A stretch of DNA of 64,000 nucleotides from the NCBI GenBank assembly GCA_019894975.1, contig JAGXNO010000006.1, forward strand, positions 39,051 to 103,050, read 5' to 3'. Shown here one piece after another: positions 12,690 to 20,097 of this stretch. This DNA is from Promethearchaeota archaeon. Its GTDB lineage: Archaea; Asgardarchaeota; Lokiarchaeia; Sigyniarchaeales; SOKP01. The first letter of the stretch is position 1. The number at the start of each line of letters is the position of its first letter. The translations under genes and the position numbers were made by a program. The notes below the pieces were generated by a model, which saw only the letters and a program-made list of their open reading frames with translations, was not told the origin of the DNA and did no database searches.

Positions 12690-12824
12690 TTCAAACTTAT
12701 ATGAATCTTTAATTTTATCTTTTTAAAAATCATTAGCTATTTATTCTCGACCTATTGTAAATATTTTTAAGAAGGAAATCTATGTTTCTTATATAGAATT
12801 TAACACAGAAATTGTGAGAATAAG

Positions 12825-14465
12825 TTGGATAAAGAAAGAATCCTAAAAGAAGCCCAAAGAATAGCAAAAGAATTCTCTTTTTGGATGGTTTCTGGTAATA
12901 TCGCTCATTTATATGGTCATGTTTATGAGACTCCAGAAAAAAATTTTGAATTAGAACTAAAATTTGATGAAACTTTTCCAAATAAACCTCCTCAATTGAT
13001 CTTTCACAAGGAAATTAAAGAATTGCTAGGAGAGATTCATTTAGAGAAATATAATCAATGGAACCCAGAGTTCAAAGTAGTCGATATTATCAAGGAACTA
13101 AAATTAAAAATTCAGGAAGCAGCAAATCTTTCAAAGACAGAAATAAAAGAAGAATTAAGTCCATTAGAAACAGCTGAAGAAAACTATGATGCTTCAGATT
13201 CTGAGGAATTTCTTGCTCCTGATCTAAATGAATACCCGGAAGAATTCCAACCAGAAGACTATATAACACCCTCAGATTTTAATAACGATTTAATTGATAG
13301 CGACCAAACATCGACAACTTTCTCAGAAGATAATAAGATCGAATCATATCAAGAACCAATTTTTGATGATACGGAACAACTAAGTTTAGAATTGACTACA
13401 GAATTAGGAATAATTCAACAAGAATATGCTTATGACCAAAAAGGGTCATCTGCTGCTGATATTAATGTTTATATTACAATTACGCTCTCAAAAACTTTTA
13501 TTATCTCTTTAAATTTTACAAATTTTCCAGAAAAACCCTTAATATCCCTGCCAGACGAAGTTAAAAATATTTTGATAGATCCAGAAAAAACATTAGATAC
13601 TTTGAAAAATTGGAATTCTAAAAATCCAGTACATATTATTGATATTATCCGTGAATTGGAAAGGAAGCTCTATTTTATCAAGGAAATAGAATCTCAATAT
13701 AAACACATTTCTGGTGAATATCAGTGTGAAAAAATTCCCGATAGTTTAACATCTGTTAAGGTCCATTTACTCACTTACGGTTTCAAGGAATATCTGGTAG
13801 TATTAGATCTAGAGCCCTATCCCAAACCCCCTATTATTGAATTACCATCTGAACTCCAGCACATTATTAATGTTCCCATCTCTGAGCTAAAATCATTCCA
13901 TAGCTGGATTGAAAACGAGACAGATGCAGTGGAAATTATTAGAGAGATCTCTTGGCTAGTAGATAAAAATTCTAGAATTAATTTTGAGATTGATTTATTG
14001 AAAGACCATTATAAAAACATTAAGTATGACCCCATTACCGCAATTCTTCTTGTTGAAATGAAGGGAAAAATGAAAACAGAAGATCTCACATTTGAATTTC
14101 AAATTAATTTACCTCCTGATTATCCTATGAAAGTACCTGATATAAAAGTGGTAAATGAATTTGAATTAGAAGCCCATGAGAAAATAAAAAATGATTTACA
14201 TGCTTCTTTTGATGACTTCTTTAAGGAATGGACACCCTTTAGTTATCTTGTTGATTTATTTAATTTAGTTTCTAAGAAAATATTCGAAGTATCCGTAGTA
14301 TCGTGTGTTATTTGCCACAAAATTGAATGTCCAAGTTGTACTAAAAAGATAGCGGGAGATGATAGTTGCCATACAGAATGCCCACATTGTAATAGAGCAT
14401 ATCATCGCCACTGTTGGGAACAAACTATACAATCATTTGGCAAATGTGGTTTTTGTCTTAGATAA
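12825..14465 (+). CDS. Multi-UEV/RWD (E2-like fold) protein with C-terminal C4HC3 RING-like zinc finger; putative E3 ubiquitin ligase
   Basis: Four repeats with (F/Y)PxxP turns (FPNKPP, FPEKP, YPKPP, YPMKVP), each followed by W...(V/I)(D/E)(I/L); C-terminal CVIC..CPSC..CPHCNRAYHRHCW..GKCGFC. Confidence 0.72.
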   Translation: MDKERILKEAQRIAKEFSFWMVSGNIAHLYGHVYETPEKNFELELKFDETFPNKPPQLIFHKEIKELLGEIHLEKYNQWNPEFKVVDIIKELKLKIQEAANLSKTEIKEELSPLETAEENYDASDSEEFLAPDLNEYPEEFQPEDYITPSDFNNDLIDSDQTSTTFSEDNKIESYQEPIFDDTEQLSLELTTELGIIQQEYAYDQKGSSAADINVYITITLSKTFIISLNFTNFPEKPLISLPDEVKNILIDPEKTLDTLKNWNSKNPVHIIDIIRELERKLYFIKEIESQYKHISGEYQCEKIPDSLTSVKVHLLTYGFKEYLVVLDLEPYPKPPIIELPSELQHIINVPISELKSFHSWIENETDAVEIIREISWLVDKNSRINFEIDLLKDHYKNIKYDPITAILLVEMKGKMKTEDLTFEFQINLPPDYPMKVPDIKVVNEFELEAHEKIKNDLHASFDDFFKEWTPFSYLVDLFNLVSKKIFEVSVVSCVICHKIECPSCTKKIAGDDSCHTECPHCNRAYHRHCWEQTIQSFGKCGFCLR

Positions 14466-14622: not shown

Positions 14623-17600
14623 ATGATATACTTGGAATTATTAGAAAAAAAGCTAGATCTACTAAAATTAGAAGAAAAAATATTGAATTTTTGGAATGAA
14701 AAGGAGATCTATGCAAAAATTAGGGAAAACGAACAGGGAAAAGAAACTTGGAGATTTATAGATGGACCCCCATACACCACAGGATCTATTCATTTAGGAA
14801 CAGCTTGGAACAAGATTCTCAAGGATTATCTTATAAAATATAAAAGAATGAGAGGGTATAAGGTTACAGATACTCCTGGTTATGATACTCATGGATTACC
14901 AATAGAAGTACAAATGGAAAAACAGTTGGGAATAGATAACAAACAGCAAATTATTGAGTATGGTGTAGATAAATTCATTACGAATTGCAAAGAATATGCT
15001 CAGAAGAATTTAAAAATAATGAATGATCAATTCAAAAGGTTAGGATGTCTTTTCTGGGATTGGGAAAACCCCTATATCACCTTTAAGAATAGTTATATTG
15101 AAGGAATTTGGTGGACTTTGAAAAAAGCGTGGGAAAATAAATTGCTTATCCAATTTTATAAACCTCTGAATTGCTGCCCCCGATGTGCAACGGCTCTTGC
15201 CAAGCATGAACATGAATATAAAAATGTTATTGACACTAGTCTTTTCCTTAAAATTAAATCAACTGAAATGGACGATACTTATTTTATCATCTGGACAACA
15301 ACTCCATGGACATTAGTCGCTAATGAGGCAATAATGGCAAATCCTATTGCTGAATATGCAAAAGTGAAAATTGAAGATTTAGATGAATATTGGATTTTAT
15401 CTAAAGCATCATTAGTACATTTAATTTCAGGAGAATTGGGTTACAAATACAAAATCGTAGAGAATTTTATTGGTGAAGATTTGGAAGGGATGAGGTATGT
15501 CCATCCTTTAATAGAAGAGGTCCCATTTCAGAAGGAATTAGAAAAACAGAGTGATAAAGTCCATACAATTATTTTATCTGAAGAGTATGTTTCAGCTTCT
15601 GAAGGTGTTGGATTAGTTCACTCAGCCCCAGGACATGGTCCCGAAGATTTTGAAGTAGGAGTAGCTAATAATATCCCGGTCTTCAATCCCGTAGATATAA
15701 GAGGTAGATATACAAAGGATGCCGGGATTTATGAGGGAAAATTTGTGTTTGATGCTAATGAAGAAATATTAGACTTATTGAAAAAAAAAGAGACTCTCAT
15801 ATTTACAAGTGAAATTGAACATGAGTATGCTCATTGTTGGAGATGTGATTCAAAATTAGTGTATAGAGCTACCAACCAATGGTTTTTTAAAACAGAAAGC
15901 ATTGTATCAGATTTATTAGAAAAAAACAGTGAAATCTACTGGGTTCCAGATTGGGCAGGAAATAGATGGTTTAAAAGTTGGTTAAGCAGTTTAAAGGATT
16001 GGTGTATCTCTAGACAGCGATTTTGGGGTGTACCTCTGAGTGTATGGATTTGTGATGATGAAAATTGCGGCGATATTACTGTAATTGGCTCCTCTAAAGA
16101 GTTAAAGGAATTATCTGGAGAGATTCCTGAAGATCTGCATCGACCTTGGATTGATCAGGTCACTTGGAAATGTAAAAAGTGCGACAAGGGTACAAAAAGG
16201 AGGATTCCAGATATTCTAGATGTGTGGTTAGACTCTGGTTCTGTAATGTGGGCTGCCCAAGAAGTTTATGATGGAAAAAGTCATTATGATACGTGGATTC
16301 CTGCTGATTTCATCCTTGAGGGAAAAGATCAAATTAGAGGTTGGTTTAACACATTACTATGCAGTGCAATGGTATCATCTGGGCGTAAAAATTATAACGC
16401 GTGCTATATGCATGGATGGACGTTAAGAAACAAACAAAAAATGAGTAAATCCAAAGGAACTCAGATCCTTCCTGAAAATCTAATTGATGGCTCATTAGAA
16501 GAGTTGGCAAAAAATAAGTCTTACTCTAAAATAAAGGGAATTGAGACCTTTCGTCTTTATTCTATAGGCGTAACCCAACCTGGTCGTGATTTTAACTTCA
16601 GTACAAAGGAATATGCTGATACATATAAGGTAATCAATACAATATGGAATGTATTTGTATACGCAGGTGAAAAATTGAGTCTAGCAGAATATGATCGCTC
16701 TAAGAATAAGGTTGATGAGAATTCTCTGAATCTATTAGATAAATGGGTCATTTCAAGGTTACATTCTACGATTAAAAGAGTCACTGAATTATCAGATGAG
16801 TATAAGCTCCCCTGGATCACAGGTGAACTAAGAGAATTCATTATTAACGATATTAGTAGATGGTATATCATGCTAAATCGAGAAAAGTTAGATATTTATT
16901 CTGAGAGTCCCGATAAATTCATGGTTATGACTGTGTTATTTGACCTTTTATTGAAAGTTATACTCCTTTTAGCTCCAATCAATCCAATGTTAACTGAGGA
17001 AATTTACCTTAAAATGTTCAAACCTTATATGACTTCAATTGGACTAAAGGAAACTGAGAGTATTCATTTACAGAATTGGCCCATTTTTCAAGAAGATAAG
17101 ATTAATTTAGACTTAGAAGACCAAATGTTATTTACTAGAGATTTAATCGAATTAATACGTGCTCTAAAAGAAGATAATAAAATCAGACTCAGGTGGCCGA
17201 ATAAAAAGATAATAATCGAACCAAAAGAGGGGATGCCTGAATTAACTTTTCCTGAGATTATTAAACAAATTGGAAATGTGAAAGAATTAGAAATAAAGGA
17301 TTCTGTAAAGAGTAATAAAAATCTTGTGCAAGCTGAATCAAAATATTGCACTATATATTTGGACATTAGCCTCGATGAAACTCTTTTAGCTGAACGTGTA
17401 GTAAATGATTTGGTGAGAAACCTTCAATTCTCTCGTAAAAAGAACAATTTCAAAGTCGGAGAAAAGATTGAATTATCTATTGGTACAAATATAGAATATT
17501 TAAATGAATATATTAAGAAAAATAGAGATACTATTTCAGATAAAGTCACTGTTCAGAAACTTGATATTATTGAAGGAGAATTACCAAAAGATGAAAAAAA

Positions 17601-17769
17601 GGTTTTTGGGGAATTAAACTTATGCCCCAATAGTAATTGTTCTGCTTCATTGAAAGAAAACATCATCACTAAACTCGAAAAAGATAATGATATTAATTGT
17701 CCCTATTGTGGTATGAAGTTAAAAATGGATAACATCAGACCAATAACCTTTAGTTTTCTCAAAGTATAG
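14623..17769 (+). CDS. ileS: Isoleucyl-tRNA synthetase (archaeal/eukaryotic type)
   Basis: DGPPY, HLGT (HIGH), WTTTPWTL, DWCISRQRFWG, EGKDQIRGWF, KMSKS. Confidence 0.97.
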   Translation: MIYLELLEKKLDLLKLEEKILNFWNEKEIYAKIRENEQGKETWRFIDGPPYTTGSIHLGTAWNKILKDYLIKYKRMRGYKVTDTPGYDTHGLPIEVQMEKQLGIDNKQQIIEYGVDKFITNCKEYAQKNLKIMNDQFKRLGCLFWDWENPYITFKNSYIEGIWWTLKKAWENKLLIQFYKPLNCCPRCATALAKHEHEYKNVIDTSLFLKIKSTEMDDTYFIIWTTTPWTLVANEAIMANPIAEYAKVKIEDLDEYWILSKASLVHLISGELGYKYKIVENFIGEDLEGMRYVHPLIEEVPFQKELEKQSDKVHTIILSEEYVSASEGVGLVHSAPGHGPEDFEVGVANNIPVFNPVDIRGRYTKDAGIYEGKFVFDANEEILDLLKKKETLIFTSEIEHEYAHCWRCDSKLVYRATNQWFFKTESIVSDLLEKNSEIYWVPDWAGNRWFKSWLSSLKDWCISRQRFWGVPLSVWICDDENCGDITVIGSSKELKELSGEIPEDLHRPWIDQVTWKCKKCDKGTKRRIPDILDVWLDSGSVMWAAQEVYDGKSHYDTWIPADFILEGKDQIRGWFNTLLCSAMVSSGRKNYNACYMHGWTLRNKQKMSKSKGTQILPENLIDGSLEELAKNKSYSKIKGIETFRLYSIGVTQPGRDFNFSTKEYADTYKVINTIWNVFVYAGEKLSLAEYDRSKNKVDENSLNLLDKWVISRLHSTIKRVTELSDEYKLPWITGELREFIINDISRWYIMLNREKLDIYSESPDKFMVMTVLFDLLLKVILLLAPINPMLTEEIYLKMFKPYMTSIGLKETESIHLQNWPIFQEDKINLDLEDQMLFTRDLIELIRALKEDNKIRLRWPNKKIIIEPKEGMPELTFPEIIKQIGNVKELEIKDSVKSNKNLVQAESKYCTIYLDISLDETLLAERVVNDLVRNLQFSRKKNNFKVGEKIELSIGTNIEYLNEYIKKNRDTISDKVTVQKLDIIEGELPKDEKKVFGELNLCPNSNCSASLKENIITKLEKDNDINCPYCGMKLKMDNIRPITFSFLKV

Positions 17770-18021: not shown

Positions 18022-20097
18022 ATGTCTAGTAAATCTAAATTAATAACTGCAATTGTATTACTAGCCGTTGGTGCTGGTTTAATACCAACTGGTCTTGTAA
18101 CAAACGATTACCTACGAGATCAAGTCTACGATGGAGTCCCTGAAGCTATGCTTAAGATTAAAGCTGATGCGGTTCCGGGTTTAGAAGATAAGATCCCGGT
18201 TTTAGGACTACCTGATATACTTAAGGGTGTTTTTGACCTAGCCTCTGCTGGGGTGGAACCGCTATTAAAAGTAAAAGCAACTCCTGACTCGTTATTGGGT
18301 TTAAAAGCTGAGATAGAAGGACAATTATTGGGTATAATTAACTTCGCAACATTAGCGCAAGGTATGGCCTTTGCTTTTAACACATTGAATGTATCCGTAG
18401 GACCAGCAGCCGCTTTAGACACATTCTTTAATAATGCTACGTATGCAGATCCTTACATATCTTTACCTAGTATTGCTATGATTGTGACAAATTTGAGTTA
18501 TTCACTTGCTGCGGCACAAGCATTATTATTTGATGGTATCTACGATGGGTCTTTTGTTAATCCATGGGGTTTACCTAGCAATACTGTTATGGGAATACTT
18601 GAGGAAATGGAATTCGGTACTGGAGCAAGCAACTTTTATACATTTATGGGAAATGCTTGGTATTGGAAATATGTAATAGGACCCTATTCTTACCCAATGG
18701 ATTCAGCGATGTATTTATACAACGCTACAGAAGCACAATTACTATCAATAACCGCTGGAGGTTATATGGATTGGGCATTTGCAAATTGGGTTCCCGGCGC
18801 GTTTGCAGCAACTTTTGGGATAACTGTTGCGGAAGCTCTTTCTACAGGTTTTTATCGACAATGGGCAAATGCTACATTTTTCGATGATGGAATCGATATT
18901 GGAGCATTTCTTGGTATTTCTGAGCTTAAGGGATTTGAAGTCGGGCTTCCTGATCCTACAAATATATCTATTGCAACTTGTATAGATCTATGGAATGTCT
19001 CACACCCATTATCATTTACAAATGAAAATGGATTGATGGACTGGTTAGATGCGGGTCTTGGGGATACTGACTTACAAACGACATTAATGACAACATTTAG
19101 CCTTACACCAACTCAACTGACAATGATAATTACGTGGTTAAGCAATTTCATTGACAATGTCACCCCTGCGTTAGTATTAGACGCAACCGGACAGACAGTA
19201 AGCCAACTTGCTACCTTAGCATTCTATGAACAATGGGCGAATGGTACCATATTTGGCGAAGTTGTTCTCCCTGATGGCTTTCTAGGTGAAATTGATGCTT
19301 CCTTCGGCGGAGCAGCTTACTTTGAAATAGGATTACCTTCACCAAGTGGTTTATCATTAGCTGAATGTATAAACTTATGGGATGTATTTAATGACAAAAC
19401 ATTCTTTTATGGTCCCAGTTTCACGAGTGTATGGTTACCTGCTTTGATGGGTGGTCCAACAACCGCTATTGAAACATACTTTTTGGTTAGTGCGGGTGAG
19501 GCAGCTGACCTTGTAACTTGGTTACGAGCTTTCGCAGATATGACAGGTGATCCTGCCACTAGTAAAGCAGCCATGGTGCTCGCTTATGACTATGGTCAAA
19601 CAATAACACAAATTGCTACAGCAGCGTTCTATGAACAATGGTCCAATGGAACCATTAATGGTGACGATGCTCTTCCAGATGGTTTTCTAGCTGAAAGAGT
19701 ACCGCCTATTTATGGGCCACCTTACTTTGAGATTGGTCTAAGCTTTTCAGCAACTCTAACACTTACTCAATGTGCAGCACTTTGGAATGTAAATAGTGAA
19801 TATTCCTTAGTAACTGTAAGTGGCATTCATAAATGGTACAAAGCAGCAGAAGGAAACACGATGTATACAACACTGGCAACACAAAATGGTGGCTTAAATT
19901 TTGTTCAAATGGGTGCAATTTTAGAGTGGCTACCCGTATTCAGAGATGTAATCGTGAATATTCTAGCTGAGGACGATAAGAATTTACCTATGGAACCATA
20001 TGATTTAGGTCAGACTTTAGCAATCAGTTTAGGTGCTGGGGGCGGAGCTTTAGCTGCTTTAGGCGTAGTACTACTTATACTTTCTAGGAGATCATAA
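18022..20097 (+). CDS. Large extracellular repeat protein with N- and C-terminal membrane anchors (putative surface glycoprotein)
   Basis: Hydrophobic N-terminal helix and C-terminal GAGGGALAALGVVLLILSRRS; three internal repeats; about 10 N-x-S/T sequons. Confidence 0.75.
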   Translation: MSSKSKLITAIVLLAVGAGLIPTGLVTNDYLRDQVYDGVPEAMLKIKADAVPGLEDKIPVLGLPDILKGVFDLASAGVEPLLKVKATPDSLLGLKAEIEGQLLGIINFATLAQGMAFAFNTLNVSVGPAAALDTFFNNATYADPYISLPSIAMIVTNLSYSLAAAQALLFDGIYDGSFVNPWGLPSNTVMGILEEMEFGTGASNFYTFMGNAWYWKYVIGPYSYPMDSAMYLYNATEAQLLSITAGGYMDWAFANWVPGAFAATFGITVAEALSTGFYRQWANATFFDDGIDIGAFLGISELKGFEVGLPDPTNISIATCIDLWNVSHPLSFTNENGLMDWLDAGLGDTDLQTTLMTTFSLTPTQLTMIITWLSNFIDNVTPALVLDATGQTVSQLATLAFYEQWANGTIFGEVVLPDGFLGEIDASFGGAAYFEIGLPSPSGLSLAECINLWDVFNDKTFFYGPSFTSVWLPALMGGPTTAIETYFLVSAGEAADLVTWLRAFADMTGDPATSKAAMVLAYDYGQTITQIATAAFYEQWSNGTINGDDALPDGFLAERVPPIYGPPYFEIGLSFSATLTLTQCAALWNVNSEYSLVTVSGIHKWYKAAEGNTMYTTLATQNGGLNFVQMGAILEWLPVFRDVIVNILAEDDKNLPMEPYDLGQTLAISLGAGGGALAALGVVLLILSRRS
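18844..19850 (+). repeat. Three intragenic ~125-135 aa repeats (FY.QW.N.T...DG...FE(V/I)GL...C..LW...W)
   Basis: FYRQWANAT (~18850), FYEQWANGT (~19222), FYEQWSNGT (~19627), each followed by FEVGL/FEIGL and CIDLW/CINLW/CAALW. Confidence 0.85.

Follow-up and report, generated by a model that had tools for sequence, protein, structure and literature searches.

A Lokiarchaeial protein with four cysteine-less E2-like domains and a RING-H2-type finger is a candidate ubiquitin E3 ligase

In a 64,000-nucleotide stretch of a Promethearchaeota archaeon genome (class Lokiarchaeia; assembly GCA_019894975.1, contig JAGXNO010000006.1, positions 39,051 to 103,050; here called the window), we analysed a complete gene at 12825..14465 on the + strand that encodes a protein of 546 amino acids (aa). 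The protein is laid out as four domains of the UBC/RWD fold (D1 to D4), an acidic linker that follows the first of them, and a C-terminal finger with 12 conserved zinc ligands, and the catalytic Cys is absent from all four UBC/RWD domains. We propose, with a probability of about 0.6, that the gene product is a multidomain RING-type ubiquitin E3 ligase built on a pseudo-E2 scaffold, acting in the eukaryote-like ubiquitin system of Lokiarchaeia. The anatomy, i.e. four homologous Cys-less E2-derived folds and a RING-H2-like finger, is seen in the alignments and models, and from it we infer all of the functional steps. The proposal is based on the profile matches of the finger to RING-H2 domains, its portability between unrelated proteins, the ubiquitin system of the genome, the E1 and double-RING genes that adjoin relatives of the gene, and the RWD-RING proteins among the structural neighbours.

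The open reading frame (ORF) starts with a TTG codon and ends with a stop at 14463-14465. Homologues begin with M-D-K-Q-R-I-L in the same alignment column as the product of the TTG start, and the start is therefore sound. A word-index search returned 315 homologues at E ≤ 0.001; the best 120 of these were 57-100% identical over 77-100% of the query, and the full-length proteins among these 120 were 529-591 aa long, with a few shorter entries that look like fragments. With 315 homologues, chance can be excluded. The named homologues came from Promethearchaeota/Lokiarchaeia metagenome bins and were mostly labelled 'hypothetical protein', and once 'E2 variant'. An exhaustive HMMER search over 1.8 billion cluster representatives gave 126 matches at E ≤ 0.001, and an NCBIfam scan of the protein gave no meaningful match. 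The sequencing runs listed as containing this stretch were DNA metagenome runs only, with no RNA run among them. An antisense ORF of 82 aa (12733-12981, -) overlaps the start of the gene and is most likely spurious.

The finger occupies aa 490-546 (14292..14462, +). Its first ligand, Cys494, lies at nt 14304, and residues 494-544 hold exactly ten Cys together with His527 and His529; the sole Cys N-terminal of residue 494, C301, is not invariant. In a 107-sequence alignment, C494, C497, C522, H527, C530, C541 and C544 were invariant, and C502, P503, C505, C515, C519 and H529 were at least 90% conserved. The ligands run in the order of a RING, with the pairs C494, C497 / C519, C522 / H527, C530 / C541, C544. 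Run against every sequence in the PDB, a finger-only profile (101 sequences) matched solved RING-H2 domains, with the Pirh2/RCHY1 RING at the top (E = 1.8e-6), EL5 and Arkadia at ~1e-4, RBX1 at 1.3e-4, RBX2 at 0.003 and APC11 at 0.007, and with PHD fingers at ~1e-2. Significance was reached solely with this finger-only profile, since the profile of the whole protein gave only E2 matches and a sub-significant RBX1. When the fingers were scanned singly against Pfam, Prok-RING_1 was the commonest family (79/101, best E = 5.6e-8), and zf-rbx1 (69/101, best relative E = 1.2e-4), zf-RING_2 (60/101) and zf-ANAPC11 (38/101) were also matched. In a structural model of residues 186-546 (model 2, described below), the predicted local distance difference test (pLDDT) score of the finger was 79-92, and the finger was predicted to form short strands and, behind ligands 5 and 6, a helix. 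Fold searches with our two models listed no row covering the finger, and a word-index search with the finger alone (at the 'longer' lengths) returned nearly exclusively members of the same family.

The finger has more ligands than a C4HC3 core, and the surplus follows RBX1. HMMER placed C494/C497 on the first Cys pair of RBX1, C502/C505/C515 on the three Cys of its insert, C522 on ligand 3 and H527-x-H529-C530 on its H-x-H-C block. In the RBX1 structure, the insert and the middle His build a third zinc site. Where the Cys trio is present in the family (100 sequences), position 529 is His in 94 and Cys in 5 (99/100), and in the four sequences that have no trio it is Ala, Asn or Arg, with C494/C497 retained. 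These four comprise one close and three distant relatives, so the trio was lost at least twice independently. Because of the alignment with RBX1 and the joint loss of the trio with His529, an accessory, RBX1-like third zinc site formed by C502, C505, C515 and H529 is probable. The ligand order as a whole (CxxC, inserted CxxC...C, H-x-H-C) is shared with RBX1, RBX2 and APC11, with nine ligands aligned by HMMER at E = 1.3e-4. In contrast to these proteins, in which ligand pair 3/4 is C-x-H, the archaeal finger has C-x2-C (C519/C522), it scores under the zf-rbx1 and zf-ANAPC11 cut-offs, and its zinc number is a prediction from sequence; RBX1 also has an N-terminal cullin-binding strand, and the archaeal finger directly follows D4. 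From the conserved ligands, the profile matches, the covariation and the model, we conclude that the finger is most probably of the RING-H2 type, with an accessory site similar to that of RBX1 added to a C4HC3 core. A preliminary description of this DNA had counted ten Cys from ~14304, considered a third zinc site possible and noted a likeness to Prok-RING_1. The count of ten is exact, H527 and H529 stand beside the Cys, and the third site has become probable at the level of sequence, given the alignment with RBX1 and the covariation (99/100 vs 0/4). Among the Pfam families, Prok-RING_1 matches the finger best, but it stays under the cut-off.

The finger is found on other proteins as well. The same finger (48-59% identical) ends four beta-helix/NosD proteins (P0179, P0182, P0186 and P0195) and a leucine-rich repeat (LRR) protein (P0201), and it is C-terminal in five membrane proteins (P0172, P0187, P0192, P0207 and P0212). 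Because it ends unrelated beta-helix, LRR and membrane proteins, the finger suggests a portable effector module, and its carriers may together form a set of modular candidate E3 ligases that differ in their recognition domains. The exhaustive search also returned 350-460-aa proteins with three repeats and the finger only, forms with an N-terminal coiled coil, and others that carry a small extra RING at the N-terminus.

The genome encodes several ubiquitin-like genes and the enzymes expected of a ubiquitin system. Two loci lie outside the window: ubiquitin-like genes stand with an E1-E2-JAMM/MPN operon on another contig (G000 contig C84:47238-52400), and a second E2 and a 532-aa E1 are encoded ~35 kb upstream on the contig of the gene itself (C142:13384-17230). 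Four E2s of the genome score above the UQ_con cut-off, the two that were read carry HPN and the catalytic Cys, and there are 4-6 small zf-RING_2 proteins. In a class-level relative (L039:4530-7176, -), a three-repeat-plus-finger gene stands immediately ahead of an E1/ThiF gene, whose product is nearest to the E1 at C142. In two different families (L040:6001-8424, +; L042:4781-7131, -), the homologue is followed by a gene for a protein with a zinc ribbon and a double RING; these neighbour proteins are 367-384 aa long and 45% identical to each other. An orthologue of the zinc-ribbon and double-RING protein was not found in the genome that holds our gene.

D1 (aa 1-102; 12825..13130, +) is a pseudo-E2/UEV domain with His72 at the position of the catalytic Cys. 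It passed the Pfam UQ_con cut-off (41.7 bits vs 27), and in an alignment with Rad6/Ubc2 its GEIHL lay against GEICL, with a four-residue gap where E2s have the HPN motif. At 102 aa, D1 is without the C-terminal helices of full-length E2s. The UBC fold is recognised by UQ_con, but D1 falls outside the active E2s, which have the catalytic Cys and HPN; D1 to D4 all fit the definition of a UEV or pseudo-E2, i.e. a UBC fold without an active-site Cys. Among 61 relatives, position 72 was Gln in 48 and His in only 2. Therefore, His72 is not conserved, and it was rejected as a catalytic stand-in.

D1 is joined to the rest of the protein by an acidic linker (aa 103-185; 13131..13379, +). Asp/Glu account for 27 of its 83 residues and Lys for 3, Arg is absent, and the linker was modelled as disordered (pLDDT 24-42). 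The linker is variable except for a short linear motif at aa 127-141 (13203..13247, +; consensus E-E-Y-I-T-P-D-L-N-A-Y-P-P-D-F), in which Pro132 and Pro138 are invariant and which is kept in relatives that are 40-46% identical (P0123 and P0126). The motif is probably a docking motif. A looser Y-I-T-P-S repeat stands a few residues past it.

D2 (aa 186-283; 13380..13673, +) and D3 (aa 284-380; 13674..13964, +) have a UBC/UEV-like fold, and D4 (aa 381-489; 13965..14291, +) is an RWD/UBC-like domain that passed the Pfam RWD cut-off (PF05773; 34.7 bits vs 22.8). In a model of the whole protein (model 1), the UBC/RWD domains reached pLDDT ~90. Model 2, built for residues 186-546 from the 107-sequence alignment with its distant relatives, had a mean pLDDT of 91 and a predicted template modelling score (pTM) of 0.79, which implies that D2, D3, D4 and the finger would pack together as one body. 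The four repeats are mutually homologous by hhalign (probability 95-99%), most closely D2-D3 (E = 3e-21), then D1-D2 (1.5e-15), D1-D3 (4.6e-14) and D1-D4 (2.6e-12), with D2-D4 and D3-D4 at ~1e-8. When the repeats were compared with an alignment of the canonical E2 family that this genome encodes, D4 and D1 were recognised with probabilities of 95.8% and 90.7%, and D2 and D3 were not recognisable in that comparison. The simplest explanation would be that the repeats arose by repeated duplication of an E2-derived domain inside this lineage. The preliminary description had claimed four E2-fold domains in 12825-14465: an E2-like first domain with the catalytic Cys replaced by His, then an acidic linker of ~85 aa and three further repeats. 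We recovered each of these elements, with UQ_con on D1, RWD on D4, 27 Asp/Glu in the 83-aa linker and pLDDT ~90 for the UBC/RWD folds, though the His varies in relatives.

In the mechanism that we favour, the finger would be cross-braced, with C494/C497 and H527/C530 forming site 1, C519/C522 and C541/C544 forming site 2, and C502, C505, C515 and H529 forming the accessory site. The finger would dock one of the genome's four E2~ubiquitin conjugates and promote ubiquitin transfer. The D2-D3-D4-finger module, as a predicted rigid body, could provide a platform for substrates or partners, comparable with the UBC-like and RWD lobes of FANCL and the RWD domain of listerin. D1, a putative UEV on an 83-residue acidic tether with a T-P-D-L-x-x-Y-P motif, may bind ubiquitin non-covalently and so capture ubiquitylated targets or hold an acceptor ubiquitin in place while a chain is built. 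Alternatively, D1 might mimic an E2 and regulate the protein's own RING. A tethered dead E2 that acts in cis on its own RING, either as E2 mimic or as holder of the acceptor ubiquitin, would be a novelty independent of any question of descent.

Several observations weigh against an E3 ligase. In its own genome the gene lies outside any ubiquitin operon, and its conserved neighbour is ileS, the gene for isoleucyl-tRNA synthetase. The finger of this protein, taken by itself, scores below every Pfam RING cut-off, i.e. 22.3 bits vs 29.1 for Prok-RING_1 (PF14446; 17.1 bits when the whole protein is scored), 16.5 vs 27.3 for zf-RING_2 and 11.9 vs 31 for zf-rbx1. Its ligands 3-5 have the PHD-like spacing C-x2-C-x4-H instead of C-x-H-x2-H, the subfamily has Gly where Pro usually follows ligand 7, and the residue just after the last Cys is not basic.

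The main rival reading is that the protein has no catalytic role and serves as a scaffold or adaptor that binds ubiquitin or partner proteins, in the manner of BRE/BABAM2, kinetochore RWD proteins or the UEVs of ESCRT-I, with the finger as a structural or protein-docking module; we consider this unlikely, if the least unlikely of the alternatives. BRE, the UEV-tandem scaffold of BRCA1-A and BRISC, resembles the archaeal protein in having dead E2 folds in tandem, and in Foldseek searches it was a top match both for the full model (6gvw_C, E = 1.8e-6) and for the D2-to-finger model (E = 4e-6), with the Knl1, CENP-O and Mediator RWD tandems also among the matches. All four E2 folds being dead, and the gene having no ubiquitin-operon context in its own genome, would suit a scaffold too. 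Pfam BRE (PF06113) was marginally passed by three relatives (P0023, P0094 and P0116; 25.9-30.7 bits vs 25.8) and its cut-off was not reached by our protein. However, these matches are local and span just 55-70 of the 320 profile positions, and BRE has no RING. The finger, in contrast, specifically and significantly matches RING-H2 E3 domains, it is C-terminal on unrelated beta-helix and LRR domains in a pattern typical of E3 ligases, and relatives of the gene adjoin an E1 or another RING protein, all of which argue for the ligase over the scaffold.

The other UEV proteins, Mms2/Uev1, TSG101/Vps23 and the Asgard UEV-Vps23 proteins, share with D1 to D4 an E2 fold without the catalytic Cys. They differ from the archaeal protein, which has neither a coiled-coil stalk nor a steadiness box and carries four copies of the fold per chain together with a RING. 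The Asgard UEV-Vps23 proteins are known (PMC9192718; bioRxiv 10.1101/2023.07.25.550441).

FANCL is the E3 of the Fanconi anaemia core complex and combines an E2-like fold, a double RWD and a C4HC3 RING. The archaeal protein shares its general plan (PDB 3k1l, 3zqs, 7kzp_L and 9a0j_L), as both have Cys-less UBC-like lobes followed by a C-terminal C4HC3-type RING, and the ~375 aa of FANCL correspond to the D2-to-finger module and to the three-repeat relatives. In agreement with the preliminary description, which had named FANCL and BRE for structural comparison, FANCL (9a0j_L, E = 2.4e-6) stood beside BRE at the top of the Foldseek search with the full model. With the D2-to-finger model, FANCL came first (E = 1.7e-7) in a collinear alignment of 391-407 columns, and BRE was followed by Ltn1/listerin (E = 3.6e-4), with 199 columns covering D4 and the finger. 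When the ESM Atlas was searched by shape, a Promethearchaeota cluster of the family itself had a template modelling (TM) score of 0.73, and the other rows shown were clusters of eukaryotic FANCL (rows 2, 6 and 10), listerin, RWD+RING and BRE proteins. D2 and D3 superposed on the d2-d3 pair of FANCL with TM 0.64 (normalised by that match) over 171 residues and a root mean square deviation (rmsd) of 3.7. A language-model look-up of the finger in the Atlas pointed to FANCL_C and listerin RING clusters at scores <0.9, which can be taken as a lead only.

Listerin is also similar in architecture. D4 and the finger align to the RWD-RING of Ltn1 as solved in ribosome-quality-control complexes (8aaf_e, E = 3.6e-4) at 18-20% identity, and the listerin-type Pfam family UBC_like (PF23009) was found on D4 in 60 of 61 family members at E ≤ 1 (best 9.3e-7), with 21.5 bits vs a cut-off of 27 on D4 of our protein. 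Unlike listerin, the archaeal protein has no HEAT-repeat body, and it has three additional UBC-like domains and three predicted zincs; no match to the Pfam LTN1/HEAT model was reported for it.

These likenesses raise the question of descent. Were the protein truly orthologous or directly ancestral to FANCL, or to the RWD-RING ligases among which listerin falls, its architecture would be inherited and not convergent. Such descent could account for the collinear FANCL alignment, the D2-D3 superposition, the fit of D4 and the finger to Ltn1 and the nearly family-wide PF23009 on D4, and yet we consider it improbable. FANCL_d1, FANCL_d2, FANCL_d3 and FANCL_C of Pfam gave no match in our protein at E ≤ 10, and none was at cut-off in the relatives, in which the best was FANCL_d1 at E = 0.0059 (on D4 and out of register), with FANCL_d2 at E = 0.3. 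The superposition of the full chain on FANCL was poor (TM 0.22-0.25, rmsd 17-21 Å), and the repeat pair that matches the FANCL double RWD was ambiguous, being D3 and D4 in one search and D2 and D3 in another. Since no Pfam FANCL cut-off was reached and the rigid-body fit was TM ~0.23 (rmsd 17 Å), membership in the FANCL family fails. Membership in the listerin family finds no firm support either, and the architecture is best called FANCL-like and listerin-like. The archaeal protein differs further from FANCL in its extra, tethered pseudo-E2 (D1) and its predicted third zinc site. Its repeats are still visibly alike and stand much closer to one another, and to the archaeal E2s, than they do to FANCL, which speaks for duplication inside the lineage.

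The distribution of the family, examined in 300 genomes sampled across the phylum, also argues against ancestry. In the genome's own family, complete copies were found in 52/68 genomes with the protein as query and in 48/68 with the profile, and in the sister family of the same order in 1-2/7. Three-repeat relatives occurred in two further families of the same class (1/1 genome each). In one family of another class, two genomes had 299-aa frames matching D4 and the finger alone (G088:C61:6802-7428 and G064:C116:5338-5748), which may represent a minimal RWD-RING protein. Apart from these frames, nothing was found in the other families searched (~220 genomes; including 0/76, 0/28, 0/21 and 0/19), and within this sample complete copies were seen in one class only. 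A genome of the same genus has, near a 367-aa frame matching residues 192-546, fragments of a second copy with TAA/TGA stops (G171:C86:100-427), which could be the remains of a duplicate in decay or else an artefact of assembly. The preliminary description had suggested an archaeal precursor or analogue of FANCL. 'Analogue' fits our results, but 'precursor' does not, because the range within one class, the kinship of the repeats and the poor superposition leave common descent with FANCL or listerin unsupported. A broader version of the idea, in which the RWD-RING supradomain and the multi-lobe pseudo-E2/RING plan would have arisen in Asgard archaea before eukaryotes, and this family would be a less diverged surviving sister of FANCL and listerin, is improbable, though slightly less so than direct ancestry.

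The weakest rival, a targeting factor whose finger would bind a peptide, lipid or small GTPase as a reader in the manner of PHD, C1 or Rubicon-homology domains, has the C-x2-C-x4-H-x2-C spacing of PHD fingers and weak Pfam matches in its favour (RH_dom 47/61, best E = 0.0017; PHDvar_NSD 41/101; C1_1 5/101; PHD 7/101), but it is very improbable, as all of these matches are under their cut-offs, RING families match better and more often (Prok-RING_1 5.6e-8, zf-rbx1 1.2e-4) and in the PDB the finger comes closest to RING-H2 ligases (E = 1e-6 to 1e-4, vs ~1e-2 for PHD fingers). We therefore rank this reader, like FANCL orthology, as a lesser rival than the BRE-like scaffold.

The archaeal ubiquitin systems described to date have small single-domain RING proteins (PMC5654768; bioRxiv 10.1101/2023.07.25.550441). 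The small Caldiarchaeum and Asgard RING E3s resemble our candidate in being archaeal RING-type fingers that occur alongside E1, E2 and ubiquitin, but they are single-domain and operon-encoded (PMC5654768), whereas the protein described here has 546 aa, an array of pseudo-E2s and a gene outside any such operon. The literature searched covers Asgard E2s, UEV-Vps23 proteins and small RING E3s; in it we found no description of a large modular archaeal E3 with its own pseudo-E2 platform, and the closest mention was a single Asgard RWD-like sequence (PMC6601020). If the candidate ligase is active, an elaborate E3 architecture would have existed in Asgard archaea, inherited or convergent, with dead-E2 scaffolds, RWD-RING coupling and an RBX1-like three-zinc RING. 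The E1, E2, ubiquitin-like and JAMM genes of the same genome make it a tractable experimental system. The family also opens a way to study the divergence of RWD/UEV domains from E2 enzymes, an issue that has been raised for the RWDs of the kinetochore, Mediator and FANCL.

In the window, the gene sits between a GT2 glycosyltransferase gene and ileS (14623-17769), which is directly downstream. The same order, with ileS directly 3' of the gene, was found in 9/11 loci of the same genus and in another genus (G113), and in a genome of the sister family (G165) ileS adjoins the gene in divergent orientation. As the linkage to ileS looks like inherited gene order, we rejected this context as a clue to function. 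Farther along the window, an ORF at 18022-20097 encodes 691 aa rich in Ala, Gly and Thr that include internal repeats and, at either end, hydrophobic segments, and the stretch that holds it has a G+C content of 0.40 vs ~0.29 around it.

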